Below are positions 13,493 to 61,571 of a stretch of 64,000 bases of DNA, piece by piece. The stretch lies in assembly GCA_977017645.1 (NCBI GenBank), contig OZ360236.1:37944001-38008000 (forward strand). The letters run 5' to 3'. Numbering within the stretch: the first letter of the stretch is position 1; each line of letters begins with the position of its first letter. Below the pieces are notes generated by a model that saw only the letters and a list, made by a program, of their open reading frames with translations, had not been told where the DNA came from and ran no database searches. The stretch comes from Torpedo marmorata (lineage: Eukaryota). The translations under genes were made by a program, and so were the position numbers.

Positions 13493-15715
13493 TTGAGAAG
13501 TAAAACACGAAAATCTGTAGACACCGTGGTTGAAGTAAAAAACACAAATGCTGGAGAAACTCAGCAGGTCAAACAGTGTCTTTTATGTAGCAAAGGTAGA
13601 AATACATGACCGATGTTTCGGGCTTGAGCCCTTCATCAAAGTATGAGAAAATGCCGGCAGGCGTCCGAACAAAGGAGTGAGGGGGGAAGGGGGATGGCAA
13701 AGGCAGGAGATGATAGGTGGAGAAAGGAGGGAGGGGACAGCAGCAAAGAGGGGGAGGAGGGATGGCTGGGTGGGTGGAAAAAAACAGGAAGGACAGGTGA
13801 GAGGGGGGAGGGGAAGGGAACGACAAGCAGGTTTAGTGGAAAGCAGAAAAGTCAATGTTAATGCCATCTGGCTGGAGAGTGCCGAGACGGAATATGAGAT
13901 GTTGTTCCTCCAATTGGGGGTAGTCTGGGTGGGATAGTACATGAGGCCATGGACAGACATGTGAGTGTGGGAGTGTGACCCGGAATTGAAATGGTTGGCT
14001 ACTGGGAGGTCGCTGTTGTTGCGGACGGAGAGGAGGTGCTCAGCAAAGCGGTCTCCCAATCTACGACCGGTCTCTCCAATGTATAGAAATCCACAAAGGG
14101 AGCACCGGATGCAGTAAATAAGTTATCTGGATGTACAAGTGAAGTGTAGTTTCACTTGGAAGGCCTGTTTGGGGCCCTGGACCGTGGTGAGGGGGGAGGT
14201 GTGGGCGCAGGTGTTGCACCTCCTGCGGGCACAGGGGAAGGTTCCGGGGGTGCGATGGGTGGGGAGGGATGAGTGCACGAGTGAATCGCGGAGGGAGCGG
14301 TCCCTACAGAAGGCCGAGAGGGGAGGAGAAGGAAAAATGTGTCTGGTGGTGGGATCCTGTAGTAAGTGCCGGAAATTCCGGCGGATAATGTGTTGGATGC
14401 GGAGGCTGGTGGGGTGGTAGGTGAGGATGAGGGGGATTCTATGTTTGTTGCGTCTGGGGGCAGAGGGGGCCAGGGCAGATGAGCGGGAAATGGAGGAGAT
14501 GCGGGTGAGGGCTGAGTTGATGGTGGTGGAGGGGAAGCCACGTTTGTGGAAAAAGGCAGACATTTCAGAAGATCTGGAGTGGAACACCTCATCTTGGGAA
14601 CAGATGCGGCGGAGGCGCAGAAATTGAGAGAAGGGGATGGAGTCCTTGCAGGGGACAGGGTGTGAGGATGTGTAGTCCAGATAGTTGTGGGAGTTGGAGG
14701 GTTTGTAGTAAATGTCGGTGGAAAGCTTGTCTCCCGAGATGGAGACAGAGAGATCCAGGAAGGGGAGAGTGTTATCGGAGATGGACCAGGTGAGTTTGAG
14801 ATCGTGGTGAAAGTTGGATGCAAAGTGGATGAAGTTGACAAGCTCATGGCGGGTGCATAAGGCAGCCCCGATGTAGTCGTCAATATACCAGAGGAAGAGA
14901 TGAGGGGTCTTGCCTGTGTAGGCTTGCAGCATGGATTGCTCCACAAAGCCCACAAACAGGAAGGCGTAGCTGGGACGCATGTGGGTACCCATGGCTACTC
15001 CTTTGATTTGGAGGAAGTGGGATGAGTTGAATGAGAAATTATTGAGAGTGAGGACAAGTTCTGCCAGGCGGAGGAGGGTGGTGGTAGAGGGTGACTGGTC
15101 GGGTCTTTGGTGCAGGAAGAAGCGAAGTGCTTTCAGACCTTCTGTGTGGGGGATAGAGGTATAAAGGGATTGGACATCCATGGTGAAGATGATGCGGTCC
15201 GGTTCAGGGAATCTGAAGTCATTGAGGAGATGGAGGGCATGTGACGTGTCGTGGATGTAGGTGGGGAGGGATTGGACCAGGGGAGAAAAGATGGAGTCAA
15301 GGTAAGATGAAACTAGTTCGGTGGGGCAGGAGCAGGCAGAAACAATGGGTCGGCCCGGATGGTTGGGTTTGTGTATCTTGGGTAGAAGGTAGAAACAGGC
15401 AGTGCGGGGGTGGGGGAGAATGAGGTTGGTGGCCGTGGAGGGGAGGTGACCGTAGGTGATGAGGTCGGAGATGGTGTTGGAGATAGTGGCGTGATGTGCA
15501 GTGGTGGGGTCCTGTGGGAGGGGTCGGTAGGAGGAGGTGTCTGAGAGATGTCGACTGGCCTCGGCAAGATAGAGGTCAGTGCGCCAGACCACAACCGCAC
15601 CGCCCTTGTCTGCGGGATTGATGGTGAGGTTGGGATTGTTGCGGAGAGAGTGGAGGGCAGAGCGTTCTGAGGAGGTGAGGTTGGAATACGAGAGGGGGGT
15701 GGTGAAGTTGAGACG
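13493..15715 (-). mobile_element. 5'-truncated Penelope-like element (Neptune type)
   Basis: RT (ADKGG, KIHK, YIDD), CxxxxCxxC linker and GIY-YIG domain interrupted by a stop at 14123; 3' pLTR region present. TSD gtgtactgta at 13483-13492 and 15716-15725. Confidence 0.9.
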
Positions 15716-15802
15716 GTGTACTGTACTGGCTTCCTTTCCTCTTCCCTCTCCGTCCTGATGCAAGGTCTTAACCTGAAAGGTCATCATCTTCTGCCTCCAC
15801 AG

Positions 15803-17540
15803 GCGAGCAAATAATATGAAAGAGGATACAAAAAGCTTCTTCAAGTATACAAGGAGTAAAAGAAAGGTGAGAGTAGACATAGGACCACTATAAAAATGAT
15901 GCTGGAGAAATAATAATGGAAAACAAGGAGGTGGCAGAGGAGCTAAATGAGTATTTTGCATCAGTCTGCACTGTGGAAGACATTAGCAGTGTGCCGGCTG
16001 TCCAACGATATCAGGGAAGGGAAGTGAGTGCAGCAACTATTTCAAGGAGAAGGTACTCAGAAAGCTGAATGATCTAAGGGTAGATAAGTCTCCCAGACCA
16101 GATGGATTGCACCTTCAGGTTCTAAAAGCAGTAGCTCTAGAGATTGTGGAGACATTGGTAATGATCTTTCAGGAATCAATAGATTCTGGCATGGTCCCGG
16201 AGGACTGGAAAATCGCAAATGTCACCCCACTATTTAAGGAGGTAGCAGAAAAGAAATTATAAACCAGTTAGCCTGACATCCGTGGTTGGAAAGATGTTAG
16301 AGTCAATTGTCAAGGATGAGGTTGCGGAGTACAGAGGCACATGACAAGAATGGCCAAAGCCAACATGGTTTCCTTAAGGGAAAATCTTGCTTGACAAACC
16401 TACTGGAATTCTTTGAAGAAGTGCCCGAGCAGGCTAGATAAAGGATGCTGTGTATTTGAATTTTCAGAAGGCCTTTGACAAGGTGCCGCACATGAGGCTA
16501 CTTAACAAGATAAGAGCCCATGGTATAACAGGAAACATGCTAGCGTGGGTAGAGCATTGCTGATTGGCAGGAGGCAGAGAATCTGAATACAGGGATGATA
16601 TTCTGGTTGGCTGCCAGTTGCTAGTGGTGTTCCACAGGGATCGGTGTTGGGGACGCTTCTTTTTATGATGTATATCAATGATTATGGAATGATGGCCACA
16701 AAGATTGCAGATGATACGAAGGTAGGTGGAGGAGCTGGTAGTGTTGAGGAAACAGACAGAAATAAACGGGCAGACTATTTTCTAAATGGGGAGAAGATTG
16801 AAAATTCCCAGATGCAAATGGACCTGGGAGTCCTCTTTCAGGACACCCTGTAGGTAAACTTCCAGGTTGAGTCAGTGGTGAAGAAGGCAAATGCAATGGC
16901 GGCATTTATTTCAAGAGGAATAGAAAATAAGAGCAGGGATGTGATGTTGAGGCTTTATAAAGGAACTGGTGAGACCTCACTTGAGTATTGTGAGCAGTAT
17001 TGGGCTCCTCATTTAAGAACGGATGTGCTGACGTTAGAGAGGATTCAGAGGAGCTTCATAAGGATGATTCAGGGAATGAAAGGGTTATCATACGAGGAAC
17101 ATTTGACGGCTCTTGGCCCGTACTCGTTAGAATTTAGGAGAATTAGGGGGGGATCTCATTGAAACATTTCAAATGTTGAAAAGTATGGACAGATTAGATG
17201 TAGAAAGGTTGTCTCGCATGGTGGGAGAGTTGAGGACAAGTGGGTACCACTTCAGGATTGAAGGCATTAACTAAGAAGAGAGGTGCGGAGGGATTTCTTT
17301 AACTGGAGGGTGGTGAATCTGTGGAATTTGTTGCCACAGGTGGTTGTGGAGGCCAAGTCATTGGGTGTATTTAAGGCAGTGATTGATAGGTACTTGATTA
17401 GCCAGGGCATCAAAGGTTATGGGAGGAAGGCCGGGTAGTGGGGCTGAGTGGGAAAATGGATCAGCTTATGACTGAATGGCAGGGCAGACTCAATGGGCTG
17501 AATGGCCTATTCTGCTCCTATGTCTTATGGTCTTATGGTG
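15803..17540 (+). mobile_element. 5'-truncated CR1 LINE, degenerate
   Basis: PEDWKIANVTPLFK, ADDTK and LEYCEQYWAPH motifs; 3' end tctgctcctatgtcttatggtcttatgg. Confidence 0.88.
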
Positions 17541-18433
17541 TTGTTTGCTAGATCATCCGAGATGTCCTCCTTCAAAAAAACACCATTAACTCTGCCCTCA
17601 CCCACATATCCTCCATTAAACCCACACATCTACCCTGGCCCTCTCCGCCCCCACGTGCAACAAGGACTGGACTCCCCTTGTCCTCAGCTACCACTCCACC
17701 AGCCTCCGCATCCAACACATCATCCTCCACTATTTCTGCCACCTTCTACGTGATCCTACCAGCAGACACATTTTCCCTTCTCCCCTCTCCGCTTTACGCA
17801 GGGACCGCTCCCTCCATGACTCCCTTGTACCCTCCTCCCTTCCAACCAATCGCCCCCTTGACACCTACCCCTAAGACTGCAGGAGGTGCTGCACTTACGC
17901 CAACACCTCCTCCCTCAACACCATTTGGAGCCCCAAGCAACGCTTCACGTGAACCTGCAGGAGTCATCTACTGTATCCGATGCTCCCCTTGTGGTCTCCT
18001 CTACATTAGAGAGACTGGACGCAGACTGGGAGATTGTTTCATTGAGCGCATCGGCTCAAAAGCGGGGATCTCTCAGTGGCCACACATTTCAATTCCCCAC
18101 CCCATTCCCTTGCTGACATGTCTGTCCATGGTCTCATGCATTACCAGACTGAGACCACCCACAAGTTGGAGAAACAATACCTCAATATTCTGTCTGGACA
18201 CCCTCCAACTGGATGGCATTAACTGACTTCTCTGGTTTCCATTAGCCCCCCCCCCCCACCACCCCATCTATCCCTATGTCTCCTTTCCTCTAGCTCTATC
18301 TCTCTCTCTCTCTTCTGTTTTTCCTCTGTCTCCTTTACCCAGCTCTGCATTCACAGAGCCAAACACCCACCTCCCCCAATCTATTCTCACCTTTCCTCTC
18401 TCCTCTCCTTATATCCATATCCAATTAACACCT
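17541..18433 (+). mobile_element. Older degenerate PLE 3' fragment (continues at 23899-24130)
   Basis: ORF 17678-18226 contains a decayed GIY-YIG (VIYCIRC...LYIRETGRRLGD); split by the palindromic insertion. Confidence 0.8.
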
Positions 18434-18719
18434 AGTAAAAAACACAAAAGCTGGAGAACTCAGCAGGTCAAACAGTGTCTTTTATGTAGCAAAGGTAGAA
18501 ATACATAACCGACGTTTCGGGCTTGAGCCCTTCATCAAAGTATGAGAAAATGCCGGCAGGCGTCCGAACAAAGGAGTGAGGGGGGAAGGGAGGTGGCAAA
18601 GGCAGGAGATGATAGGTGGAGAAAGGAGGGAGGGGACAGCAGCAAAGAGGGGGAGGAGGGATGGCTGGGTGGGTGGAAAAAAACAGGTGAGGGGGGAGGG
18701 GAAGGGAACAACAAACAGG

Positions 18720-21225
18720 TTAGTGGAAAGCAGAAAAGTCAATGTTAATGCCATCTGGCTGGAGAGTGCCGAGACGGAATATGAGATGTTGTTCCTCCAA
18801 TTTGCGGGTAGTCTGGGTGGGATAGTACATGAGGCCATGGACAGACATGTGAACGTGGGAGTGTGACCCAGAATTGAAATGGTTGGCTACTGGGAGGTCG
18901 CTGTTGTTGCGGACGGAGAGGAGGTGCTCAGCAAAGCGGTCTCCCAATCTACGACCGGTCTCTCCAATGTATAGAAAGCCACAAAGGGAGCACCGGATGC
19001 AGTAGATAAGTCCTTTGGATGTACAAGTGAAGTGTAGTTTCACTTGGAAGGCCTGTTTGGGGCCCTGGACCGTGGTGAGGGGGGAGGTGTGGGCGCAGGT
19101 GTTGCACCTCCTGCGGGCACAGGGGAAGGTTCCGGGGGTGCGATGGGTGGGGAGGGACGAGTGCACGAGTGAATCGCGGAGGGAGCGGTCCCTGCGGAAG
19201 GCCGAGAGGGGAGGAGAAGGAAAAATGTGTCTGGTGGTGGGATCCTGCAGCAAGTGCCGGAAATTCCGGCGGATAATGTGTTGGACGCGGAGGCTGGTGG
19301 GGTGGTAGGTGAGGATGAGGGGTACTCTATGTTTGTTGCGTCTGGGGGCAGAGGGGGCCAGGGCAGATGAGCGGGAAATGGAGGAGATGCGGGTGAGGGC
19401 TGAGTTGATGGTGGTGGAAGGGAAGCCACGTTTGTGGAAAAAGGCAGACATTTCAGAAGATCTGGAGTGGAACACCTCATCTTGGGAACAGATGTGGCGG
19501 AGGCGGAGAAATTGAGAGAAGGGGATGGAGTCCTTGCAGGGGACAGGGTGTGAGGTTGTGTAGTCCAGATAGTTGTGGGAGTTGGAGGGTTTGTAGTAAA
19601 TGTCGGTGGAAAGCTTGTCTCCCGAGATGGAGACAGAGAGATCCAGGAAGGGGAGAGTGTTATCGGAGATGGACCAGGTGAGTTTGAGATCGTGGTGAAA
19701 GTTGGATGCGAAGTGGATGAAGTTGACAAGCTCATCGTGGGTGCATGAGGCAGCCCCGATGTAGTCGTCGATATACCGGAGGAAGAGATGAGGGGTCTTG
19801 CCTGTGTAGGCTTGCAGCATAGATTGCTCCACAAAGCCCACAAACAGGCAGGCGTAGCTGGGACCCATGCGGGTACCCATGGCTACTCCTTTGATTTGGA
19901 GGAAGTGGGATGAGTTGAAGGAGAAGTTATTGAGAGTGAGGACAAGTTCTGCCAGGCGGAGGAGGGTGGTAGTAGAGGGTGACTGGTCGGGTCTTTGGTC
20001 CAGGAAGAAGCGAAGTGCTTTCAGACCTTCTGTGTGGGGGATAGAGGTATAAAGGGATTGGACATCCATGGTGAAGATGATGCGGTCCGGTTCAGGGAAT
20101 CTGAAGTCATTCAGGAGATGGAGGGCATGTGAGGTGTCGCGGATGTAGGTGGGGAGGGATTGGACCAGGGGAGAAAAGATGGAGTCAAGGTAAGATGAAA
20201 CTAGTTCGGTGGGGCAGGAGCAGGCAGAAACAATGGGTCTGCCCGGATGGTTGGGTTTGTGTATCTTGGGTAGAAGGTAGAAACGGGCAGTGCGGGGGTG
20301 GGGGAGAATGAGGTTGGTGGCCATGGAGGGGAGGTGACCATAGGTGATGAGGTCGGAGATGGTGTTGGAGACAGTGGCTTGATGTGCTGTGGTGGGGTCC
20401 TGTGGGAGGGGTAGGTAGGAGGAGGTGTCTGAGAGTTGTCGACTGGCCTCGGCAAGGTAGAGGTCAGTGCGCCAGACCACAACCGCACCGCCCTTGTCTG
20501 CGGGTTTGATGGTGAGGTTGGGATTGTTGCGGAGAGAGTGGAGGGCAGAGCGTTCTGAGGAAGTGAGGTTGGAATACGAGAGGGGGGTGGTGAAGTTGAG
20601 ACGGTTGATGTCTTGGCGGCAGTTGGAAATAAAAAGGTCCAGAGCGGGCAGCTGGCCCGGGCGGGGTGTCCAGGAAGAGGAAGAAGGCTTGAAGCGGGAG
20701 AAAGGGTCTAGGGTGGGGGGTGGAGAATCACGGTCATGGAAGTGAGCACGGAGGCGGAGGCGACGGAAGAAGAGTTCAGCATCATGGCGTGCGCGGAACT
20801 CGTTGAGGTGTGGGCGGAGGGGGACGAAGGTGAGGCCTCTACTGAGGACGGAGCGCTCCGTCTCAGAGAGGGGAAGGTCGGAGGGGATAGTAAAAACCAA
20901 GCAGGGGTTAGAGTGGGGATCGGTGTCGTGGAGGGTGTTGGGGGGAGGGGGAGGGTTGGGGGGGTCAGAGGGGGGAGGTGGAGGGTGGGGGAGGTTGGAG
21001 GGAGTCGGAGGGGGGAGGTGGGGGGTAGGAGGGTGGGAGAGGGGGGTAGGGAGGGTAGCCAGAGAGAGGGGGGGAATGGAGGTACGGGAAGGGATGAGGT
21101 CTGAGGGTTGGGGAGGAGAGTGGGGCAGAGAGGGGGAGATGGGGGTGGAGTAGGGAGAGGTGCAGGAGGAGAGGGAAGGAGTAGTGAGGGGGATAGGTAA
21201 GTGGGATATTGTTGCAGGATGAGGA
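18720..21225 (-). CDS. PLE RT + GIY-YIG endonuclease, left arm (open frame, 5' truncated)
   Basis: Uninterrupted frame with a Pro-rich N-terminus, LSRGLTFVP, ADKGG, GVAMG, RYIDD, CARRRCNTC and LIYCIRC...YIGETGR. No natural ATG identified. Confidence 0.88.
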
Positions 21226-21387
21226 CTCCCTACCCCCCTCTCCCACCCTCCTACCTCCCCTACCCCCCACCTCCCCCCTCCGACTCCCTCCAACCTCCCC
21301 CACCCTCCACCTCCCCCCTCTGACCCCCCCAACCCTCCCCCTCCCCCCAACACCCTCCACGACACCGATCCCCACTCTAACCCCTGC

Positions 21388-23568
21388 TTGGTTTTTACTA
21401 TCCCCTCCGACCTTCCCCTCTCTGAGACGGAGCGCTCCGTCCTCAGTAGAGGCCTCACCTTCGTCCCCCTCCGCCCACACCTCAACGAGTTCCGCGCACG
21501 CCATGATGCTGAACTCTTCTTCCGTCGCCTCCGCCTCCGTGCTCACTTCCATGACCGTGATTCTCCACCCCCCACCCTAGACCCTTTCTCCCGCTTCAAG
21601 CCTTCTTCCTCTTCCTGGACACCCCGCCCGGGCCAGCTGCCCGCTCTGGACCTTTTTATTTCCAACGGCCGCCGAGACATCAACCGTCTCAACTTCACCA
21701 CCCCCCTCTCGTATTCCAACCTCACTTCCTCAGAACGCTCTGCCCTCCACTCTCTCCGCAACAATCCCAACCTCACCATCAAACCCGCAGACAAGGGCGG
21801 TGCGGTTGTGGTCTGGCGCACTGACCTCTACCTTGCCGAGGCCAGTCGACAACTCTCAGACACCTCCTCCTACCTACCCCTCCCACAGGACCCCACCACA
21901 GCACATCAAGCCACTGTCTCCAACACCATCTCCGACCTCAGCACCTACGGTCACCTCCCCTCCATGGCCACCAACCTCATTCTCCCCCACCCCCGCACTG
22001 CCCGTTTCTACCTTCTACCCAAGATACACAAACCCAACCATCCGGGCAGACCCATTGTTTCTGCCTGCTCCTGCCCCACCGAACTAGTTTCATCTTACCT
22101 TGACTCCATCTTTTCTCCCCTGGTCCAATCCCTCCCCACCTACATCCGCGACACCTCACATGCCCTCCATCTCCTGAATGACTTCAGATTCCCTGAACCG
22201 GACCGCATCATCTTCACCATGGATGTCCAATCCCTTTATACCTCTATCCCCCACACAGAAGGTCTGAAAGCACTTCGCTTCTTCCTGGACCAAAGACCCG
22301 ACCAGTCACCCTCTACTACCACCCTCCTCCGCCTGGCAGAACTTGTCCTCACTCTCAATAACTTCTCCTTCAACTCATCCCACTTCCTCCAAATCAAAGG
22401 AGTAGCCATGGGTACCCGCATGGGTCCCAGCTACGCCTGCCTGTTTGTGGGCTTTGTGGAGCAATCTATGCTGCAAACCTACACAGGCAAGACCCCTCAT
22501 CTCTTCCTCCGGTATATCGACGACTACATCGGGGCTGCCTCATGCACCCATGATGAGCTTGTCAACTTCATCCACTTCGCATCCAACTTTCACCACGATC
22601 TCAAACTCACCTGGTCCATCTCCGATAACACTCTCCCCTTCCTGGATCTCTCTGTCTCCATCTCGGGAGACAAGCTTTCCACCGACATTTACTACAAACC
22701 CTCCAACTCCCACAACTATCTGGACTACACATCCTCACACCCTGTCCCCTGCAAGGACTCCATCCCCTTCTCTCAATTTCTCCGCCTCCGCCGCATCTGT
22801 TCCCAAGATGAGGTGTTCCACTCCAGATCTTCTGAAATGTCTGCCTTTTTCCACAAACGTGGCTTCCCTTCCACCACCATCAACTCAGCCCTCACCCGCA
22901 TCTCCTCCATTTCCCGCTCATCTGCCCTGGCCCCCTCTGCCCCCAGACGCAACAAACATAGAGTACCCCTCATCCTCACCTACCACCCCACCAGCCTCCG
23001 CGTCCAACACATTATCCGCCGGAATTTCCGGCACTTGCTGCAGGATCCCACCACCAGACACATTTTTCCTTCTCCTCCCCTCTCGGCCTTCCGCAGGGAC
23101 CGCTCCCTCCGCGATTCACTCGTGCACTCGTCCCTCCCCACCCATCGCACCCCCGGAACCTTCCCCTGTGCCCGCAGGAGGTGCAACACCTGCGCCCACA
23201 CCTCCCCCCTCACCACGGTCCAGGGCCCCAAACAGGCCTTCCAAGTGAAACTACACTTCACTTGTACATCCAAAGGACTTATCTACTGCATCCGGTGCTC
23301 CCTTTGTGGCTTTCTATACATTGGAGAGACCGGTCGTAGATTGGGAGACCGCTTTGCTGAGCACCTCCTCTCCGTCCGCAACAACAGCGACCTCCCAGTA
23401 GCCAACCATTTCAATTCTGGGTCACACTCCCACGCTCACATGTCTGTCCATGGCCTCATGTACTATCCCACCCAGACTACCCGCAAATTGGAGGAACAAC
23501 ATCTCATATTCCGTCTCGGCACTCTCCAGCCAGATGGCATTAACATTGACTTTTCTGCTTTCCACTAA
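21388..23568 (+). CDS. PLE RT + GIY-YIG endonuclease, right arm (open frame, 5' truncated)
   Basis: 726-aa frame with the same motifs; only a handful of amino-acid differences from the left arm. Confidence 0.9.
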   Translation: MVFTIPSDLPLSETERSVLSRGLTFVPLRPHLNEFRARHDAELFFRRLRLRAHFHDRDSPPPTLDPFSRFKPSSSSWTPRPGQLPALDLFISNGRRDINRLNFTTPLSYSNLTSSERSALHSLRNNPNLTIKPADKGGAVVVWRTDLYLAEASRQLSDTSSYLPLPQDPTTAHQATVSNTISDLSTYGHLPSMATNLILPHPRTARFYLLPKIHKPNHPGRPIVSACSCPTELVSSYLDSIFSPLVQSLPTYIRDTSHALHLLNDFRFPEPDRIIFTMDVQSLYTSIPHTEGLKALRFFLDQRPDQSPSTTTLLRLAELVLTLNNFSFNSSHFLQIKGVAMGTRMGPSYACLFVGFVEQSMLQTYTGKTPHLFLRYIDDYIGAASCTHDELVNFIHFASNFHHDLKLTWSISDNTLPFLDLSVSISGDKLSTDIYYKPSNSHNYLDYTSSHPVPCKDSIPFSQFLRLRRICSQDEVFHSRSSEMSAFFHKRGFPSTTINSALTRISSISRSSALAPSAPRRNKHRVPLILTYHPTSLRVQHIIRRNFRHLLQDPTTRHIFPSPPLSAFRRDRSLRDSLVHSSLPTHRTPGTFPCARRRCNTCAHTSPLTTVQGPKQAFQVKLHFTCTSKGLIYCIRCSLCGFLYIGETGRRLGDRFAEHLLSVRNNSDLPVANHFNSGSHSHAHMSVHGLMYYPTQTTRKLEEQHLIFRLGTLQPDGINIDFSAFH

Positions 23569-23742
23569 CCTGTTTGTTGTTCCCTTCCCCTCCCCCCTCA
23601 CCTGTTTTTTTCCACCCACCCAGCCATCCCTCCTCCCCCTCTTTGCTGCTGTCCCCTCCCTCCTTTCTCCACCTATCATCTCCTGCCTTTGCCACCTCCC
23701 TTCCCCCCTCACTCCTTTGTTCGGACGCCTGCCGGCATTTTC

Positions 23743-23785
23743 TCATACTTTGATGAAGGGCTCAAGCCCGAAACGTCGGTTATGT
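23743..23785 (+). ncRNA. Minimal hammerhead-ribozyme-like motif in the PLE pLTR
   Basis: TTGATGA-A-GGGCT-CA-AGCCC-GAAA-CGTC. PLEs are known to carry minimal type I hammerheads. Variant core (U at C3, extra A before stem II). Mirror copy on the minus strand at 18511-18538. Confidence 0.7.
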
Positions 23786-24224
23786 ATTTCTACCTTTCCT
23801 ACATAAAAGACATTGTTTGACCTGCTGAGTTCTCCAGCTTTTGTGTTTTTTACTACATTATTACGGTGTCTACAGATTTTCGTGTTTACTTTTTACTTTC
23901 CAATTAACACCTTTTGTCTGTTGGTCTGTCCTCCTTCCCCTGCCCTTTCTTTCATTCTCCTCCAGCCTTTTAATTCAGGTGCCTGCTTGCCTTTTACTCA
24001 TACCTTGAAGAAGGGCTCAGAGCAGGAACAATTGTTATATATCTTTACCTCCTATGGACGCTGTGAGACCTGCTGAGTATTTCTGTGTTTTTACTACAAT
24101 CACAGCGTCTGCAGACTTTTGTGATCCACTCTTATGGTGTTGCTTGACCAGCTGAGTTCTACCAGTGTCATGTTTTTGATAGATAATAAAAGTTTAACTC
24201 AAAAAGCAGAACAAAAACACAAAA

Positions 24225-24624
24225 CCTAATATACCATTGGGCACTCTCCAACCAGATGGCATTAACATCGACTTCTCCAGTTTCTGTTAGGCCCTCCTCT
24301 GTCTCTCTCTCTCTCTCTGTCTATCTGTCGGTCTCTCTCTCTCTTTCTCTCTCTCTCTCTTTCCTATCCCTCTGTCTCCTTTCCTCCAGCTCCCTACCCC
24401 CTTCCCTCACCATTCAGAGAACTACCCCCTCCCCCTATCAATTCTCAGCTTTTTTCTCTTCTGTCCTCCCACCCATACTACCTATGGCCTCTTGCCTGTT
24501 GGCCTGTGCTCCACACCACCCCACCCCTCGCCACTTCTTCCCTCCTCACCCTACCTTTTTATTCAGGCACCTGCCTGCAATCTGCTCATTCCTTGATGAA
24601 GGCTCAGCCCCCAAAACATTGGTT
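24225..24624 (+). mobile_element. Old PLE 3' end/pLTR fragment interrupted by the Gypsy element (resumes 29344-29420)
   Basis: LGTLQPDGINIDFS-type end, CT-rich UTR and a decayed hammerhead motif at about 24591-24620. Confidence 0.7.
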
Positions 24625-27600
24625 TGATATACCTATCAATAACTGACGCGAGTCTAGAAGTGCAGGAATTAACAGGCTTTTATTAACAGAATCAAAGCCA
24701 GGGCTAGCTATGCCTTGACCTGATGATCCCTGCTGGATTGTCCAGGAACTGGGGAGGAGTTGCTGGCTCAAGGCCTTTATTCCAGGTAAAGGGGGAGGGG
24801 TCACCGGGACAGACAGACAGGTCATGGTCATACCTGCCTCAGGCCACAATACATACAAAGTGGTTTACCACATTCACCCCTTCTTTTAGAACAAGTCCGA
24901 CGGGGGGGTGAAGTGGATACTGTAAAAAGAAAAAAATACAAAATACATAGATAATATACAGTTTTTACAGGTCGAGTTTCGCCGGCGGCCGGATTTGCCG
25001 CCGTGACCTGCGTAGCGCCAGCGGTGATGGTAGTGGTTGTGGAATGAGGGTACGAGTGAGAAAACGTGATACCTGCGGAGATGGTTGTGGCTGTGGAATG
25101 GGAGTAGGTACAGTAGGGTGGATCTGGGGCTGGTTCGCCTCCTGCCTGGCTAGTGGCCAGACCAGCTGTGACGGAGACAACGTCGTGCTGGGAGGCGGAT
25201 GGGCCGGAGGGGGCAGCTGCGACCCGGCGTTTCCGCTGTCGGGGACCTCTTCAGACGCTCCTGCAGGCGCCAGGTCCCGTATTGACACCGTGTCTTCCCG
25301 CCCGTCGGGGAGAACCACGAATGCGTACTGCGGGTTTGCATGGATCAGCTGCACCCTCTCGACTAAGGGCTCGTACTTGCTACTCCGAAGATGTTTGCGG
25401 AGTAGCACCGGCCCCGGGGACGTCAGCCAGGCAGGGAGTGTAGTCCCGGTGGTCGATTTTCTGGGGAAGGAAAAGATACGTTCGTGAGGGGTAGTGTTAG
25501 TGGCGGTACATAAGAGAGATCGTATAGAGTGGAGGGCGTCCGGGAGAACCTCCTGCCAGCGAGCCACTGGCCACCCTTTTGCTTTCAGGGCCAGTAGTGT
25601 CGCTGTCCATACTGTGGCGTTCTCCCTCTCCACCTGTCCGTTCCCCCGTGGGTTGTACCCCGTGGTCCTACTGGTAGCGATGCCTCGGGTCTGCAAGTGC
25701 TGTCGCAGCTCCCCGCTCATGAACGCGGACCCCCGGTCGCTGTGGACATAGTTGGGGAACCCGAACACGGTGAAAACCTGGTGGAGAGCCTTGATAGCCG
25801 CCGCCGCCGAGGTATCTGGGCAGGGGATGGCAAAGGGGAACCGCGAGTACTCATCGATGATGTTGAGGAAGTACACATTGCGGTTCGTGGAGGGGAGGGG
25901 GCCCTTGAAGTCTATACTGAGACGTTCGAACGGGCGGGTGGCTTTGACCAGCTGTGCTCTGTCGGGGCGGTAGTACTGCGGTTTGCATTCCGCACAGACT
26001 CGGCAGCTGCTGGTCATGGTCTTGACCTCATCCAGGGAGAAAGGCAGGTTCCGTGCTTTAATGAAGTGAAACAGCCTGGTAACTCCTGGGTGGCAGAGGT
26101 CATTATGTAGGGAGTATAACCGGTCGATCTGCGCGCTGGCGCACGATCCCCGGGATAGAGTGTCAGGGGGCTCGTTGAGCTTCCCGGGCCGGTAAAGGAT
26201 GTCGTAATTGTAGGTGGAGAGTTCTATTCTCCACCTCATGATTTTGTCGTTTTTAATTTTACCCCGCTGCTGGCTGTTAAACATGAAAGCGACGGAGCGC
26301 TGGTCCGTCAGCAGGGTAAAATGTTTTCCGGCGAGATAGTGCCTCCAGTGCCGGACAGCCTCGACAATGGCCTGGGCCTCTTTCTCTACCGCGGAGTGCC
26401 GAATTTCGGGGCCTTGAAGGGTGCGGGAGAAAAACGCTACCGGTCTTCCCGCCTGGTTGAGGGTAGCAGCCAGTGCGAAGTCCGATGCGTCACTCTCTAC
26501 CTGAAAAGGTTCCGACTCGTCCACTGCGTGCATCGCTGCTCGGGCGATGTCCCCTTTTATGAGGTCGAAAGCCTCACGTGCCTCCGCTGCCAGGGGAAAC
26601 TTGGTGGACTTGACGAGGGGTCGGGCTTTGTCCGAGTAGTTTGGGACCCATTGTGCATAATAGGAAAAGAACCCGAGGCATCGTTTAAGTGCTTTGGGGG
26701 TAACGGGGATCGGAAGTTCCAACAGGGGGCGCATGCGGTCGGGGTCGGGTCCAATCACCCCGTTTTCCACGACGCACCCCAGGATAGCGAGTCGGGTAGT
26801 CCCGAACACGCATTTCTCCTTGTTATATGTGAGGTTCAGCGTCTCGGCCGCCTGTAAGAACTTCCGAAGGTTCCTATCGTGATCCTGGCGATCATGACCA
26901 CAAATGGTGATGTCGTCCAGGTACGGGAAGGTGGCAGTGAGCTTGAACTGGTCAATGATCCTGTCCATCTCCCTTTGGAACACGGATACCCCATTTGTTA
27001 CCCCGAAGGGAACGCGCAGAAAATGGAATAATCTGCCGTCCGCCTCGAAAGCGGTGTATACTCGGTCCTCCCGGCGGATTGGGAGCTGATGGTAAGCCGA
27101 CTTAAGGTCGATGGTGGAGAACACTTTATATTGAGCAATCTGGTTGACCATATCCGCGATCTTCGGCAGCGGATAGGCGTCCAGTTGCGTGAACCGGTTG
27201 ATGGTCTGGCTATAGTCCACCACCATCCGGCTCTTAGCCCCGTTCTTTACCACGACTACCTGTGCTCTCCAGGGGCTATTACTGGGTGCAATGATCCCTT
27301 CCCCCAGTAAACGCTGCACCTCCGCCTTAATAAACGCCCTGTCCCCTGTACTGTATCGCCTACTTTTAGTTGCGATGGGCTTACAGTCAGGGGTAAGGTT
27401 GGCGAAGAGTGGCGGGGGTTGGGTCTTTAGTGTGGAGAGACCACAGGTAGTCTGGGGCGTATTAATTAAATACTGGGGGTTAGTCACAACGATTGGGGGG
27501 TGGGGCCCATCATAGTGCATGGTGACGCTACGCAGGTGGCTTTGGAAGTCCAATCCCAGCAATACAGGAGCACACAAACGGGGCATGATTAGCAATGAAA

Positions 27601-29343
27601 ACTCTCGATATTCCGTGCCCTGTACCACTATATTCGCCACACAACCCCCCCGGATGTCTGTTGTGTGCGTTCCAGACGCCATGGCCACCCTCTGGCTTAC
27701 CGGTACAATGGTGAGGCCACAGCGCTGGGCAGTGTCTGGATGGATAAAACTTTCTGTACTGCCTGTGTCGAACAGGCAGGTGGTCTTATGCCCCTCAACG
27801 AGAATGTCCATCATGGATCTGGACAGTTGATGGGGCGCGCTCTGGTCCAGCGTCACGGATGCCAGGGTCGAGACGAAGTCTTGATCTTGATCCGGTGGCA
27901 GCTCCCGTAGCTCGTACGTGTCGCTACGAGAGGGTGGAGTCGGAAGTGCTGGAAGTGCTGCGGTGAGGTTATAAAATGGCCGCGCCGGAAATGTAGAGAT
28001 CGGAAGTGTGGACCAAGATGGCCGCCTCCAGTCCTCACACGAGGTCTCAGCAGGAAGTGATGTCATGTAAGATGGCCGCCTCCTCCCGTCGCACGTGGCG
28101 CTGCTGGAAAACGGAAGTGCTGCGCGCTGTGATGGCTGCCTCCAGACCTCACACGAGGTCTCCGCCGGAAGTGGAGTCGAGTAAGATGGCCGCTCCCGTA
28201 CCTCGCACGCGGCGCTGCTCGGACCCGTGCGCGACTTGGAGCGGCAGACCTTAGCATAGTGGCCTTTCTTGCCACAGCTAGAACAAGTCGCGTCTCGGGC
28301 CGGGTAGCGCTTGCGCGGGTGCTTGTCGAGCCCGCAGAAGTAGCACTTCTCGGGCTCCCGGGTGATAGCGGCGGCGGTTAACTCACGGGTAGCGGCGGGC
28401 TCTCGGGCAGCGGCGGCAGCGGCCAACTCACGGATAGCGTCGGCGGCGGCGAGCGGGTCCCGGTAGACGGCAGCAGCCGTCGCGTTGCTTGTAGGGCTGA
28501 CGGTTGGGGCGATCCAAGAAGCAGGCTGCGCCTGCATAGCGTCGGCGTTCTTTAGGGCTGAGTCCAGATTCAGTATGTTCTGGACAGTCGATTTCAGGGT
28601 CAGATCGGCGTGTTCCAGCAATCGCTGGCGGATGTAGCCCGACCTGATCCCTCTTATGATAGTGTCCCTTGCCAGTATCTCGGAGTGTTGCTCAGCCGTC
28701 AGGGCTCGACAGTCACACGCTCGCACCAGGAGCATCACGTCCTGGATATATTCGGAGACCGACTCTCCGGGTCGCTGGTACCGCTGCGATATCCAGTGCC
28801 TTGCGAAAATCTCGTTCGCAGGCGTCAGGTACAGCGTTCGGAGGGCGACCAAGGCATCATCAAAAGTCCTACAGTCTCTGACGGCGCCATACACTCGCTT
28901 GCTTACCCTGGACATGAGGATATCGAGTTTCTGCTCATCAGTAGCTGCTCCGGACGACCTCATGTAGGCTGTGAAGCAGCGTTGCCAAAGTTCGAAATCG
29001 CTTGCAGCGTCTTGGGCCAGGGGGTCGATGTATAGCTTGTCTGGCTTTAACAAATTCTCCATTGATTCGTATTTTGTTGAAACTGTTAATAAAATTGATA
29101 TACCTATCAATAACTGACGCGAGTCTAGAAGTGCAGGAATTAACAGGCTTTTATTAACAGAATCAAAGCCAGGGCTAGCTATGCCTTGACCTGATGATCC
29201 CTGCTGGATTGTCCCGGAACTGGGGAGGAGTTGCTGGCTCAAGGCCTTTATTCCAGGTAAAGGGGGAGGGGTCACTGGGACAGACAGACAGGTCATGGTC
29301 ATACCTGCCTCAGGCCACAATACATACAAAGTGGTTTACCACA
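24625..29343 (-). mobile_element. Intact Gypsy/Ty3 LTR retrotransposon
   Basis: 248-bp TG...CA LTRs at 24625-24872 and 29096-29343 with about 2 differences. TSD tggtt at 24620-24624 and 29344-29348. PPT aaaagaaggggtgaa next to the 3' LTR. Confidence 0.96.
24965..29062 (-). CDS. Gypsy Gag-Pol polyprotein (Gag zinc knuckles, PR, RT, RNase H, IN)
   Basis: Single open frame with CSSCGKKGHYAKVC, LFDTGS, YLDD, ESDASD, HNDLCH..CRVC and a DDE integrase. Start placed at MENLLK, the first ATG after the LTR. Confidence 0.94.
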   Translation of the reverse strand: MENLLKPDKLYIDPLAQDAASDFELWQRCFTAYMRSSGAATDEQKLDILMSRVSKRVYGAVRDCRTFDDALVALRTLYLTPANEIFARHWISQRYQRPGESVSEYIQDVMLLVRACDCRALTAEQHSEILARDTIIRGIRSGYIRQRLLEHADLTLKSTVQNILNLDSALKNADAMQAQPASWIAPTVSPTSNATAAAVYRDPLAAADAIRELAAAAAAREPAATRELTAAAITREPEKCYFCGLDKHPRKRYPARDATCSSCGKKGHYAKVCRSKSRTGPSSAACEVRERPSYSTPLPAETSCEVWRQPSQRAALPFSSSATCDGRRRPSYMTSLPAETSCEDWRRPSWSTLPISTFPARPFYNLTAALPALPTPPSRSDTYELRELPPDQDQDFVSTLASVTLDQSAPHQLSRSMMDILVEGHKTTCLFDTGSTESFIHPDTAQRCGLTIVPVSQRVAMASGTHTTDIRGGCVANIVVQGTEYREFSLLIMPRLCAPVLLGLDFQSHLRSVTMHYDGPHPPIVVTNPQYLINTPQTTCGLSTLKTQPPPLFANLTPDCKPIATKSRRYSTGDRAFIKAEVQRLLGEGIIAPSNSPWRAQVVVVKNGAKSRMVVDYSQTINRFTQLDAYPLPKIADMVNQIAQYKVFSTIDLKSAYHQLPIRREDRVYTAFEADGRLFHFLRVPFGVTNGVSVFQREMDRIIDQFKLTATFPYLDDITICGHDRQDHDRNLRKFLQAAETLNLTYNKEKCVFGTTRLAILGCVVENGVIGPDPDRMRPLLELPIPVTPKALKRCLGFFSYYAQWVPNYSDKARPLVKSTKFPLAAEAREAFDLIKGDIARAAMHAVDESEPFQVESDASDFALAATLNQAGRPVAFFSRTLQGPEIRHSAVEKEAQAIVEAVRHWRHYLAGKHFTLLTDQRSVAFMFNSQQRGKIKNDKIMRWRIELSTYNYDILYRPGKLNEPPDTLSRGSCASAQIDRLYSLHNDLCHPGVTRLFHFIKARNLPFSLDEVKTMTSSCRVCAECKPQYYRPDRAQLVKATRPFERLSIDFKGPLPSTNRNVYFLNIIDEYSRFPFAIPCPDTSAAAAIKALHQVFTVFGFPNYVHSDRGSAFMSGELRQHLQTRGIATSRTTGYNPRGNGQVERENATVWTATLLALKAKGWPVARWQEVLPDALHSIRSLLCTATNTTPHERIFSFPRKSTTGTTLPAWLTSPGPVLLRKHLRSSKYEPLVERVQLIHANPQYAFVVLPDGREDTVSIRDLAPAGASEEVPDSGNAGSQLPPPAHPPPSTTLSPSQLVWPLARQEANQPQIHPTVPTPIPQPQPSPQVSRFLTRTLIPQPLPSPLALRRSRRQIRPPAKLDL

Positions 29344-29607
29344 TGGTTATATAATCTTTGCTTCCTATGGACGCAACGGGACCTGCTGGGTTTCTCCAGC
29401 ACTTTTGTGTATTACACGACAACAGGAAGTGAAGCTTTACAAAATAGCAACTGCGCTGATGAAAGATTTTTAACAAAGAATGGTTAGCATTTGTCACATA
29501 AATTTCATTCATAATATGTTGAGATTTCCAGCTGATTATTTTTCTCCTTTATAAGTAAGCAAACATATAATTGGAAGGAAATGTAGGTCACAGACTTCCC
29601 ATTATTA

Positions 29608-30915: not shown

Positions 30916-31715
30916 CTGAACTTCATGAAGATGAATTAAAATATTTTAAATTCATTGTATTTGTTTTTAATTATTTGTTGCTGTACTGAGGCCACCAATT
31001 ATTTATTTTTATATTACCGTAACTATTCCGAAGGTTTTAAATGCTTTGCTGTTCTTTATAGGTTAGTTGTGTCCACATCTTTTGTTTCAAATACGTCAAA
31101 TGCTGCGGACAGAACTAGGACAAGTGCCTAGAAACTGGATTTCGCCCTGGTACATTGAACGAGTGCGATATTGTGCCGACACACAAAAGCTGACCTGTGT
31201 GTTTCTCTGCAGATTGCTGAAGAGATCGCAGTTACTGCATATTTATTACTAGGAATCATGGGAAGCAGGTCACAGCCTAATATTACTCTCTCCATGGTGG
31301 CTTCAGTACAGCCACAGAAAAGGTTGAGGCAAGAAAGATGGGATACATCTTCAATATCTGTGGCCACAACCCCCTACAATTTCTGAGCAGTTCAAATCCC
31401 AGGCCATGAGTTGCCCCAGATCACTCTGCTGGGACTGCTGTGTGAGCCTCTACAGTGTATAGCCACAACAAATACTGAGACCCAGTAATGTCACATGACA
31501 TATACAGAGCATTAAAAACTCAGGCTGGTAACAGCAGATAGTTAAATGTTGATATTCTTGTAGACTTTCTGCAGGATCTGATTCTTCTTTTTCAAAAAGA
31601 AGGCTGTAGACTGCACATAGTCAATAGAGTTATAGAGTCATACATCACAAGCATCACCTATGGCCTACCATATCTATACCAACCATTGAGTACCTATAAA
31701 TATATATATATTTAT

Positions 31716-34180
31716 CATATAGACCTATTTCATTATTAAATGTAGATTATAAAATAATGGCAAAAATTCTAGCAAACAGAATGGCTAAATATTTGCCAGA
31801 TTTGATACATATAGACCAAGCTGGTTTAATTAAAAATAGATATTCAAAGGATAATATAGCTAGATTAATTAGTTTAATTAGTTTGCATAAAAAGAAACAA
31901 GATTTACCATTAGTTGTAACATTAGACGCTGAAAAGGCTTTTGATAGATTAGAATGGAATTTTTTATTTAAGGTATTAGAAAAATTTGGTTTTGGAAATA
32001 CATTTATAAACTGGATTAAAACTATATATAAAGAACCATCAGCTAAAGTAATTACAAATGGACAAATATCGCCAAAATTTTCTTTGACACGTTCTACGAG
32101 ACAGGGATGTCCCCTGTCACCAGCTTTATTTGTTTTGGCGATAGAACCCTTTGTTGAAGTAGTTAGAAAAGATCCTAAAATAGTGGGTATTAAAGTTGGT
32201 ATGGAAGAACATAAGATTAGTTTGTTCGCAGATGATGTATTGATATATATGACAAAATCTATTATATCACTTCAACAACTATCTATTATATTAAGAGAAT
32301 ATGGTGAAATATCTGGATATAAAATTAATTTGGATAAAAGTGAAATAATGGCTTTATCTCAAGGTGATTACACTAGATGTAAAGAAATTACACAATTTAA
32401 ATGGGCTAAAGAAGGAATTAAATATTTGGGGGTTAAGGTTGATACAAAATTGGAAAATTTATATAAATTAAATTATCTACCATTATTTGTGAAAATAAAG
32501 AAAGATTTAGAGAATTGGAAAGACTTACCCATAACTTTAATGGGAAGGGTAAATTGTATTAAAATGAATATTTTTCCAAGAGTTCAGTATCTTTTTCAAT
32601 CAATTCCTTTTGGAATTCCTCAAAAATTTTTTAAAGATTTAAATTTTATTATTAGGAAATTTTTATGGAAAGGAAAGTTAGCAAGAGTAAGCATGGAAAA
32701 GTTAACCTGGAATTATGAGATGGGTGGATTGCAACTTCCTAATTTTCAAAATTATTATAAAGCAGCTCAATTAAAATTTGTCAATGAATTTTTTGATTCA
32801 ACTAAATCTTCTGCTTGGATTAAAATAGAATTAAATAATATAGGAGAAAATCTTAAAGAAGAAATTATTTATAAATGGGATTCTAAATTAATATTATTAA
32901 AAAAGAAAAATTCACCGATTATTAAACATTTGTTAGAAATATGGGGTAAGACGAATAAAGAGATAGGTGGAAGAGGATTAATTTCTTCAAATATGCCATT
33001 ATATCAAAATGGACTTATATCATTTACTGTTTATAATCAGTTACTTAAAATTTGGTTTCAAAAAGGTATTAAGAAGATTAATGATTGTTTTGAAGCTGGA
33101 AAATTTATTACGTTTCAAAGAATGAAAGATAAATTTAATATACCAGATAATACATTTTTAGCTTATTATCAAGTTAAAGCTTTTTTGACTGAGAAATTAG
33201 GTTATGCTTTGATTTTACCAAGACAAAATGAATTAGAATTATTAGTTACTAATGGAGATGTTAATAAATTTATTTCTCAAATGTATAAATTGTTTCAGAG
33301 GAAAATGCCTAAAATAGGATTGCATAAATCAAGATTAAAATGGGAATTAGATTTAAATGTAAATATAGATGAAAATCACTGGAAAGATTTATGTAAGTTA
33401 AGTATGACGAAAATTATTAATGTTAGATATAGATTAGTACAATATAATTTCTTTCATCAATTATATTTAACACCTAAAAAATTAAAGAAATTTAATCCGA
33501 CATTATCAGGACTATGTTTTAGATGCAATAATGAGGAAGGTTCTTTTGTTCATTCTACATGGTTTTGTCCAAAGATTCAAGATTTTTGGTTGAAAGTTTA
33601 AAAAATTTTAGATAAAATATTTAATATTACATTTCCAATGGATCCTATGTTATTTTTATTTGGAGATATTAAAAAATTTAGTATTAAAAAGAAATTAAAT
33701 ATGATTCAAGTAGAATTTTTTCGAATTGCTTTAGCTGTTTCGAAAAAATGCATTGCTATTACTTGGAAATCTGATTTAGATTTAGGATTAGAAAGATGGC
33801 ATGCAGAGCTCCGTTCGTGTATACCACTGGAAAAAATTATTTATAATTTACGTAATAAATATCATTTCTTCTTGAAAATTTGGAGCCCATATATGAGAGC
33901 TGTGGGTTTAAGGATCTGAAGATCTCTAGATATCGGATCTACTGGCATATTTGACCTCCGTAATAGAATTAGTTTATAGATGATATTCCCCTTATTCTAT
34001 CTTTTTCTTTCTTTCCTTTTTCTATTTTTACTTTTATTTTATATTACTAGATTAGTGGGGATGGGGGGGTTGGGGAGGGGAGGGAGGGTGGGGGGGTGAA
34101 AATGTATCACATGTATTTTGATAATTTTATATTTTATCTTATGTATTTTGTGATTTAAAAGTTTAAATAAAATAAAAAAA
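31716..34180 (+). mobile_element. 5'-truncated young L1 (RT through 3' UTR)
   Basis: ORFs 31757-33601 and 33638-33919 are separated by one frameshift; A tail; flanked by aaatatatatata..tttat repeats at about 31698 and 34181. Confidence 0.92.
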
Positions 34181-48660: not shown

Positions 48661-51600
48661 TATAAGTAACGGTGACTTCGCTCCACCAATAGTCACCTGG
48701 AGGCTAAGTGTGGTCCTTGCTTTTGACGCGTTTTAATTAATTTACTAACAAAGTCCAATATGTTCAAAAACCTTTATTTTCACACATGACTTGCAGTAAT
48801 CTTCAATGACTTTAATATAAACAGTTCTTGTAAACGATGTATAATGAGTTCCTTTAAATTATTCCTTAAACAATTCCAAAACGATATGAAACACTGTAGA
48901 TGATGTTAAAGTTATAAAAACATTATAACTCGATATAAAACGGTATAAAACGGTCAATAAAGATGTGGAGACCAGACTCACCCCCCATACATCTCTATCC
49001 TTTCTTTGTTCTCTCTCTCTAATGGTTCTGCGCATGCTCCAACGCGCATACTACAATTCCCAGCCTCCCACGCGCACTATGACGTCACTCTATACTGCGC
49101 ATGCGCCCGTCGGCACTCCAGCGCATGCGCAGAGCACAGAACGGGCCGATAGCGGCCCGCAGACAATGCAAGCGCTCCGAACGGGCCGAGGACGGCCCAG
49201 CAACATCCACAACAACTACGCGGCGCTCCAAGGCCCGACAAGACATCGGAGCGCCGCAACAACGGTAAGTAAACGAGCCTACGGCTCTTACACCGGCCCC
49301 TAATTATTATAATTAGACGTAATGTCTTGAATAATAATTACACTATAAATTATAAATAACAATAACCATAATATTCAAAACAATACAAATCTTCTTTCTT
49401 CCTTCTTCATAAATCTAGAGTTTACCATAACTCTGATTCAACAAAAGTCTGTAACCTGTGAAATGTACAACAACAAATAAAGTCAGTTTACATTTATCAA
49501 AGTTCCTCTGTCTCCAACAAAAGGCAGACCTTATTAATAGGTCTGTTTAGAAAACCAGTCTTAGTTTTAATTCGCACTTGACGCACAAGTCCTCTTTGTC
49601 TTGAAAAGTCTCAATAATCTTTTCCAAGTAACCAGGAATTTCTTGAAGTTGAACCATCCATAACAATCACAATGTCTCTTTAAAGTTCTTTTATCTTCAA
49701 ATCCGAGTCAAAACGTTAACCAGTAAACCTCAAATCCTCCTCAGATAAAATAGATACAGTTTTTCTTTTGAATTTAACACAAGGCACTTCTTCAGCACGT
49801 CGTTTCACTTTATTCCTTTCTTCAGTATTCCACTTCTCATGTGAAAAATTTAAACTCTTAGAATTAGAATTTGAATATTTATCTGATTCTTTCGATTTTA
49901 AACAGGTCTGTTTAACCACTCTGGTTTCTATTGCTCTTTCCTGCAATTCTAAATCCAATTTCGCAATTTTCAATTCAGTCTTAGCTCCTTCCGAGAAATT
50001 AATAATTTGATCTGAAGTCAAAATATCATGCGATACATTGATAGTTCCATTGTCAATCCTGTTGCGGTATACTTGAAATTTTTTAATTTCTTCGTCTTGC
50101 TTGTTACATTTCTGCAATGCAATTTCACATTCTTTCTGCATTGTTAATTGTTGAACATTCAATTTACATTCTTGATTGGTTTTAAAAGTTAACTGTTTTG
50201 TGTTATTAACCAATAACTTGATCTCTTTCAAAACATTAATCTCTTCCTCCAACCTTTTACATTTTGATAATGCTGAATCTCTTTCCTCAATAACTGTATT
50301 CATTTCTTCAGCAGTTATTCTTTTCTTCCGCTTTCTGACTTTGCGAGTTTTACTTACAATTAAATCTTTCTGTTTACTGTTTTCTTGATTATCTAATATT
50401 TCCAATTCCCCTTTCAACATTTTGTTCTCTGGATTCAATTGCATTAAATTATCATTCACATTATTCTTTATTCCATCAGCACAATTTTCTGTGTTTTCCA
50501 GTTTTACATCACGTTGCAATATTTCTTCATTAGCTTTGTCTGTTGTAATCTCTGAACTACAAAATCTACATTCAGATTTGTTTTCAGTCACTTGTTTTAT
50601 TCCTGTATCTGATTCAATTACACATGAATGATCAATAGTATTATTTGCAATATCTTCTAATACTTCACTTTCATCCATTTCTGACGAAATTAATTCCTTT
50701 AATGTTGTTTTAAATACCATTGATTTATTTTCACATTGATCTGTTTTCTTTTCTTCATAAGTGATTTTCTTATTCACGGTTTTTTGCTCTTCTCTTAACT
50801 CTTCAAATTTCTCAACTGAAATTTTATTAACATTTATCGCTACCTGTTCCTGAGCAATATCATTATTTCTTTCCATTGGTCCATTGATTGCCCAACCAAG
50901 TATGGTTCTAATAGCGTAAGGTCCATTCCTTTTACTTTCTATTACTTCTTTTGGTACCAAAACCTTTGGCACATCTGAACCAATCAGCATTTCTATTTCA
51001 GAATTAATTTCAGGTAAATAAACCTTCCACAGATAAGCTAAATGATGGATATCACTTTGATGAGGAATATTTCCTTCGTTCACAGGCATAGTCTTCTGAG
51101 TATATACACTTGGAAGATCACAAAATTTTTTGTCATCCAATCCAGCAACCTCTAAGCCTGAAACAATGTTAGTTTCAACAACCTTTTCTTGTCCCATGGT
51201 TTTTAACATAATTCTTGATTTTCTTCCTTGAATATTAAGTTTATTCATTAGTCCTTCCGTGCAAAAAGATGCAGTGCTACCTGGGTCTAGAAATGCATAT
51301 GTTTTTACTATTGCATCCCCTTTCTTGGCCTTAACTTGTACAGGCACTATTGAAAGTTTGCAGTTATTCACCCCGGCCCCAGTAAGACCACTTGTCTGAA
51401 CCGAGGTTATAACATTATTTTCTGTTGTTTCCTTTTCCAATTCTTTGTTTCTGTTTTGGACATGCAAAATTCTAGGATGTTTAAAATTGCATATGTCACA
51501 ATTAATTCGCTTCTCACAGTTTTTACTGATGTGCCCTTTACACAGACAGCTAAAACATATTCCATTTTCCTTTAAGAAAGCGATCCTTTCTTTATGTTCC

Positions 51601-61335: not shown

Positions 61336-61571
61336 CGGTACTTCTTTCTTTTCCATTAAAACAGATTAACTGGTCATTCATCTCAATGATTTTTGTAAGA
61401 TCCTGTTATTTATAAAAGATCTGGCTTCTTGATATCTGCAATAAAGGGCACTGCACTTCAAAATAATTTTTTGTGTTAAGATATTTTGAGAGCATTTCTA
61501 AGAGATGAAGCAATTAGTAATCTTAAATAAGACATCCTTTGCTCTACACTGTGCTTTAAAAATGCCATTAA

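Follow-up and report, generated by a model that had tools for sequence, protein, structure and literature searches.

Priming of reverse transcription by the element's own RNA has been proven for the fission-yeast retrotransposon Tf1, is regarded as characteristic of the Tf1/sushi chromoviruses and has been predicted for some plant lineages. In Tf1, the RNA's first 11 bases pair with its primer-binding site (PBS), and cleavage by RNase H falls between bases 11 and 12 (PMC7175516, PMC4600332, PMC10085805), a reaction for which a three-duplex fold is required (PMC10085805); the primer is further copied into single-stranded PBS DNA, and about half of the cDNAs retain the PBS copy (PMC11042837). 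Primer copying is not universal, since in Ty3 12 nt of the primer are copied but the plus strand is transferred without the primer copy (PMC5371799). Among plant elements, self-primers have been predicted for Tcn1 (Gypsy) and TAR (Copia) from a complement of at least 10 nt to the long terminal repeat (LTR), positioned 0-5 nt past the 5' LTR (PMC6317226), and the sections of that survey consulted here name no self-primer in animal non-chromoviruses. A different role for a stem near the RNA 5' end is provided by HIV-1, whose polyA hairpin regulates polyadenylation (PMC2645353).

The window considered here, a 64,000-nt stretch of Torpedo marmorata DNA, carries on its minus strand a Ty3/gypsy copy (the Gypsy element) with TG...CA LTRs, a target-site duplication, a polypurine tract and the pol order PR-RT-RH-IN; the copy is young, and its best match among solved structures is the Ty3 Gag-Pol. 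Its features, all on the minus strand, are as follows:

29344..29348, minus strand: target-site duplication AACCA, 5 bp (second copy at 24620-24624)
29096..29343, minus strand: 5' LTR, 248 bp, TG...CA
29245..29253, minus strand: TATA-like GAATAAAGG, putative promoter element by the motif spacing in host junction types
29218..29225, minus strand: initiator-like CCCCAGTT, with a predicted start at about 29221, 61 nt 5' of the arm
29149..29160, minus strand: LTR arm CTGTTAATAAAA, predicted self-primer, which holds AATAAA; predicted cut at its 3' end, 29149/29148
29139..29148, minus strand: left strand of the inner stem, beginning at the first base past the arm
29102..29111, minus strand: right strand of the inner stem (U5 end) in the predicted fold
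29083..29094, minus strand: leader arm TTTTATTAACAG in the primer-binding-site position, separated from the LTR CA by a single A (29095)
24965..29062, minus strand: gag-pol, a single ORF of 1365 aa with a double zinc-knuckle region, PR, RT, RNase H and IN, and no chromodomain
24873..24887, minus strand: polypurine tract adjoining the 3' LTR
24678..24689, minus strand: arm copy in the 3' LTR, likely the working poly(A) signal, with no leader arm after it
24625..24872, minus strand: 3' LTR, 248 bp, with 2 mismatches to the 5' LTR

The gag-pol frame is also open for 91 further codons upstream (29063-29335, minus strand), across the 5' LTR, and many copies of the element share this open frame of 1456 aa.

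The gag-pol ATG lies 33 nt past the 5' LTR, and the intervening 33 nt contain no TGG-led tRNA site. One base past the LTR, TTTTATTAACAG is the exact complement, over 12 nt, of CTGTTAATAAAA, whose 3' end is 53 nt from the LTR end, and a match of this length was reached by only 1 of 20,000 dinucleotide shuffles of the LTR. These measurements bear out the initial annotation, which had described a PBS replaced by a 12-nt LTR complement without TGG, and a partner that holds AATAAA about 55 nt from the LTR end and recurs in the second LTR (24689-24678). Exactly 12 bases are paired in all 53 examined copies of the window element's family. The 5' junction folds significantly better than expected (z = -4.3, 0/200 shuffles) into the outer arm duplex and an inner stem starting at the very next base, whereas the equivalent LTR stretch at the 3' end, which has no leader, does not (z = -0.3). 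As the exact LTR complement sits where a host tRNA normally binds, the element likely primes with its own RNA, and comparison of element sequences makes it probable that a self-primer binds to the leader arm across the whole of this Gypsy lineage, the biochemical steps being modelled by analogy.

In the proposed mechanism, the RNA would fold back so that the leader arm pairs with the LTR arm, and would be cut just 3' of the arm, between AAA and RCC, with the element's RNase H the likely nuclease, as in Tf1. The new RNA 3' end would then prime minus-strand DNA, yielding a strong-stop product of about 54 nt that would share only some 15-20 nt with the RNA 3' end, so that strand transfer would proceed via the short overlap between the cut and the poly(A) site. 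Plus-strand synthesis would finally copy 12-15 nt of primer back into the primer site, and one mutation would therefore become a compensated pair. In a second role, the arm duplex may also hide the poly(A) signal of the 5' LTR, because it can form at that LTR only, the 3' LTR having no leader arm.

The arrangement is abundant and widespread. The 6.2-Gb host genome holds 34,748 matches to a pattern made up of the hexamer, 44-54 nt, the LTR end and TTTTATT, versus 1 match to a reversed control, and perfect arm runs of 12-15 nt are found in 136 of 145 distinct host loci, which were not picked for mismatches. A search with the RT region retrieved 1,041 proteins at E <= 1e-60, with rays, sharks, a cnidarian, insects, an isopod and nematodes among the named hosts and no relatives found in viral contigs; the RT motif DYSxTIN is present in 99/102 relatives. 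This motif was not found in the searched part of published supplement files, atlas matches comprised generic Gag clusters only and the names of homologues were uninformative as to the clade. We found no description of the layout in animal non-chromovirus Gypsy elements in the open literature, and subscription journals, Repbase or some supplement files may hold one. Three host copies from three families (L327, L337 and L368) are internally deleted to about 2.15 kb with both LTRs and the leader arm kept, and are possible non-autonomous derivatives.

More distant relatives came from metagenome contigs, where 80 loci were found, 76 entered the analysis (4 matched inside gag only), sufficient upstream DNA was available for 74 and a CA-N-TT junction was present in 70. 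Pairing of at least 8 nt is present in 46 of these 70 loci versus 5 of 1,400 shuffles, and of at least 11 nt in 36/70 versus 0/1,400. The loci represent 20 distant families whose arms are unrelated in sequence and measure 9-18 nt (median 14), with loops that span 31-62 nt. In 17 of the 20, GCC or ACC stands directly 3' of the arm, and LTR ends were confirmed by 3' copies in some families. The arm ends on AATAAA or ATTAAA in 15/20 families and on TTTAAA, GATAAA, TGTAAA, ATCAAA or GTTAAA in the other five, with the pairing kept perfect. Among 17 families folded, the hairpin begins at the first base past the arm in 12, and a third duplex as in Tf1 was not detected in any (z from -1.6 to +1.6). 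No poly(A) tails were found at the contig ends. In four metagenome loci (L095, L108, L118 and L160) a polypurine tract lies immediately 5' of the 5' LTR, as in tandem elements with one shared LTR or in collapsed assemblies.

Whether such pairing persists and covaries in related Gypsy families, the check proposed with the initial annotation, can thus be answered positively for the lineage as a whole. At the five variable pairs of the 145 host loci, the 725 cells comprise 715 Watson-Crick pairs, 2 G.U pairs and 8 mismatches. In an alignment of 41 arm types, whose rows were picked for distinct arms and whose core 7 pairs were fixed by the search pattern, the outer helix shows 98 two-sided changes (0/500 shuffles) and the inner helix 0. 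On a gag tree of 92 copies, from which 6 copies without gag were dropped, the five variable pairs require no fewer than 37 compensated switches, one of them within a near-identical clade (L035); recombination may inflate this number, and 10/460 cells are unpaired. At one other pair, no instant compensation was seen (0 of 6 LTR-arm variants), and this search may be incomplete because no reverse-strand match was returned; all five checkable uncompensated variants differ in the 5' LTR only and look like later decay. These tens of thousands of copies amount to a natural mutation record, which argues that the primer templates the primer site.

The same record bears on priming by a tRNA end or an internal tRNA fragment, for which half-tRNA primers in Copia lineages offer a precedent (PMC6317226). 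With no TGG at the site, and with a site whose changes track those of the LTR across 41 host arm types and 20 distant families, as established by comparing element sequences, such priming is scarcely credible here.

The initial annotation had also offered, as an alternative, a hairpin that masks the poly(A) signal of the 5' LTR; were this its only role, something else would have to prime. An arm that so often ends on AATAAA or ATTAAA (15/20 distant families), a duplex specific to the 5' LTR and the HIV-1 polyA hairpin as precedent (PMC2645353) all speak for such a function. A selected RNA stem should, however, take U.G pairs, and the outer arm does not: at the pair adjoining the hexamer, the genome-wide counts are 25,401 T-A, 5,195 C-G, 140 U.G and 136 C-A, whereas G.U accounts for 194 of 1,189 predicted pairs in the inner stem. 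Wobble thus gives the outer arm no advantage, and its covariation is strictly Watson-Crick. The 3' LTR carries C in 9 and T in 8 of the U.G copies (17 usable of 29), and T in 7 and C in 9 of the C-A copies (16 usable of 23), so that, judging by their sequences, the mismatched copies look like products of decay following insertion. Since U.G is no commoner than C-A in the outer arm while G.U is free in the inner stem, primer copy-back fits better than poly(A) masking alone. Furthermore, five distant families keep perfect arms without a canonical hexamer, and the arm fills the primer position one base past the LTR, with no second primer site ahead of the ATG. A role in masking alone therefore fits worse and is unlikely, while masking as a second role is possible.

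Inverted repeats can be homogenised by template switching, and the symmetry of the arms might accordingly stem from DNA-level hairpin correction after insertion, or from chance, with no role in replication. Among 50 full-length copies (250 cells), the odd base out lies in the 5' arm in 4 cases, in the 3' arm in 3 and in the leader arm in 3, against an expectation of about 2.4 each from the 1.9% LTR divergence; the sample is unselected (62 of 82 chosen places, 50 usable) and its power low. These near-equal counts show no sign of correction and thus indicate that the concordance of the arms is set in replication with no later repair, which leaves the DNA-level explanation very improbable. As for chance, LTR shuffles, the genome control and the metagenome shuffles exclude it as the origin of the arm pairing.

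Taken together, the lineage-wide strict covariation, the absence of a tRNA-type site and the conserved inner hairpin at the predicted cut leave self-priming, as the initial annotation had proposed it, well supported by sequence comparison. That the geometry would differ from Tf1, the second half of that proposal, is plausible from the promoter motif pair by itself. A TATA-like AATAAAG precedes an initiator-like CAGT by 31-33 nt in 75 of 79 host junction types, and the CAGT in turn is found 44-67 nt 5' of the hexamer. From this spacing and the T-rich sequence that follows the downstream motif, we infer that the upstream AATAAA represents a variant TATA box and that its downstream counterpart is the poly(A) signal. 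On this reading, transcription would, on balance, start some 60 nt upstream of the arm, and the primer would therefore be internal to the RNA and carry a 5' tail.

A plain Tf1 geometry, with the start at or a few bases 5' of the arm and the primer formed by the first 12-15 nt of the RNA, would remove the geometric novelty while leaving self-priming intact, and its share is counted within the likelihood given above for self-priming. The pairing ends sharply at 12-15 nt and does not extend 5' of the arm, and in many host families a pyrimidine-rich (Y)ATTC, a weaker initiator-like motif, abuts the arm on its 5' side, so this geometry has to be allowed for. Against it stand the regularly spaced TATA-like/initiator pair upstream, the absence of a TATA at -30 from the arm in the host types and the lack of any arm-edge motif common to the 20 distant families, whose arms range from 9 to 18 nt. 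We regard it as doubtful, if a serious contender.

Chimeric copies provide a further view of the priming event. Cross-family arm-pair searches gave 54 hits, mostly with single-base changes, of which 20 were retrieved and 17 had a usable 3' LTR; these copies were hand-picked as discordant. Two young ones, L471 and L476 (LTRs 98.7% and 99.1% alike), have matching LTR arms and native U5 and leader sequences, and a leader arm of another family's type at two sites, a pattern that fits the expected trace of copying a primer supplied by another RNA. In L477, both LTR arms and U3 derive from one family and U5, the leader arm and gag from another, as would be expected if the arm lies outside the strong-stop DNA. 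The simple model does not predict the 8 of 17 discordant copies in which the 5' LTR arm alone carries differences at two or more sites, for which heteroduplex repair, intermolecular plus-strand transfer or gene conversion are candidate causes. Several of these eight (L470, L472, L473, L474, L482, L484, L485 and L489) match another family's arm, and in L470 and L472 the foreign upstream flank sits in the 3' LTR. Gene conversion among 35,000 copies could be the source of any chimera, including the two with a foreign primer site.

Copies such as L471 and L476 suggest trans events and are in keeping with a primer that originates in the 3' arm copy or in another RNA molecule, by circular or trans priming, instead of in the 5' fold-back. 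An identical arm is indeed available near the RNA 3' end, and a longer R would ease strand transfer. The conserved inner stem nevertheless requires U5, which is present only at the RNA 5' end, where the local fold is strong, and we therefore consider 3' or trans priming quite improbable, and fold-back at the 5' LTR the preferred route.

The initial annotation further held that a second LTR superfamily in the window follows the same logic, a claim that concerns the following element:

48661-54471, minus strand: BEL/Pao-like element with DUF1759 and SAP hits and identical 632-bp LTRs, ends TG...TA

We take this element to be BEL/Pao-like; a search of its ORFs revealed no RT. In 24 of the 25 junction-bearing copies, the leader GTCAATAAAG has a match in the LTR, 271-291 nt from its end, which extends to 11-12 nt in two copies; a 10-nt match was reached by 8 of 5,000 shuffles. 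The 10-nt LTR match thus stands, while the rest of the likeness does not: the site, up to 291 nt away from the LTR end, leaves the LTR's AATAAA uncovered, the pairing is absent from the predicted fold and no compensatory change occurs among the 25 copies with a junction. The element may be regarded as a weaker self-priming candidate, of a more Tf1-like layout. Elsewhere in the window, two Penelope-like copies (RT and a weak GIY-YIG) at 18433-21058 and 21230-23855 are 99% complementary and form a 2.6-kb inverted repeat with the halves 171 nt apart, a third Penelope-like copy spans about 13558-15982, and LINE-type RT fragments of one AT-rich family lie at 31700-33601, 2948-5152 and 61531-62858.

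We tentatively propose, as a possibility that the present comparisons leave short of probable, that a large and ancient non-chromovirus Gypsy lineage of animals acquired self-priming independently of Tf1/sushi, with an internal primer terminating on the element's own poly(A) signal, a single 5'-specific duplex that both blocks premature polyadenylation and sets the cut, and a primer site rewritten from the primer in each cycle. If self-priming holds for this lineage, tRNA-free priming would be much commoner than presently appreciated, with a second and very successful animal lineage, and it would be explained why PBS-based annotation misses such elements, which may also lie beyond the reach of silencing by PBS-directed tRNA fragments.

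The lineage resembles Tf1/Tf2 of Schizosaccharomyces pombe, Tj1 and Tf1/sushi in that there is no tRNA site, an LTR segment complements the primer-site position and a second duplex adjoins the first. It differs from Tf1/sushi in lacking a chromodomain, which Pfam detected in 0 of 24 aligned relatives and which is listed for none of the retrieved homologues, so the Gypsy element is not a member of that group. In contrast to Tf1 itself, the hexamer on which the arm ends is of poly(A) type and lies 31-62 nt short of the LTR end, and the primer is predicted to be internal to the RNA, where the Tf1 primer consists of the first bases. The Tf1 pretzel has three duplexes, whereas two are conserved in the Gypsy lineage and a third was not found in the 17 families folded; self-priming is demonstrated for Tf1 and inferred from sequence for the Gypsy lineage. 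By traits alone, the lineage can be likened to the Mag lineage of metazoan Ty3/gypsy elements, given its single ORF, short LTRs, lack of a chromodomain, double CCHC knuckle (92/102 long relatives) and wide animal range, which we take to be Mag-like traits. Named Mag elements use tRNA sites, unlike the present lineage with its LTR-complementary primer site. The window element answers to the same self-primer definition as plant Tcn1 and TAR, from which it is set apart by lineage and host. Finally, as in the HIV-1 polyA hairpin, a stem encloses AAUAAA near the RNA 5' end (PMC2645353); the HIV-1 hairpin lies within R and hence at both RNA ends, whereas the Gypsy partner strand lies outside the LTR, which renders the stem 5'-specific and places it in the primer position.
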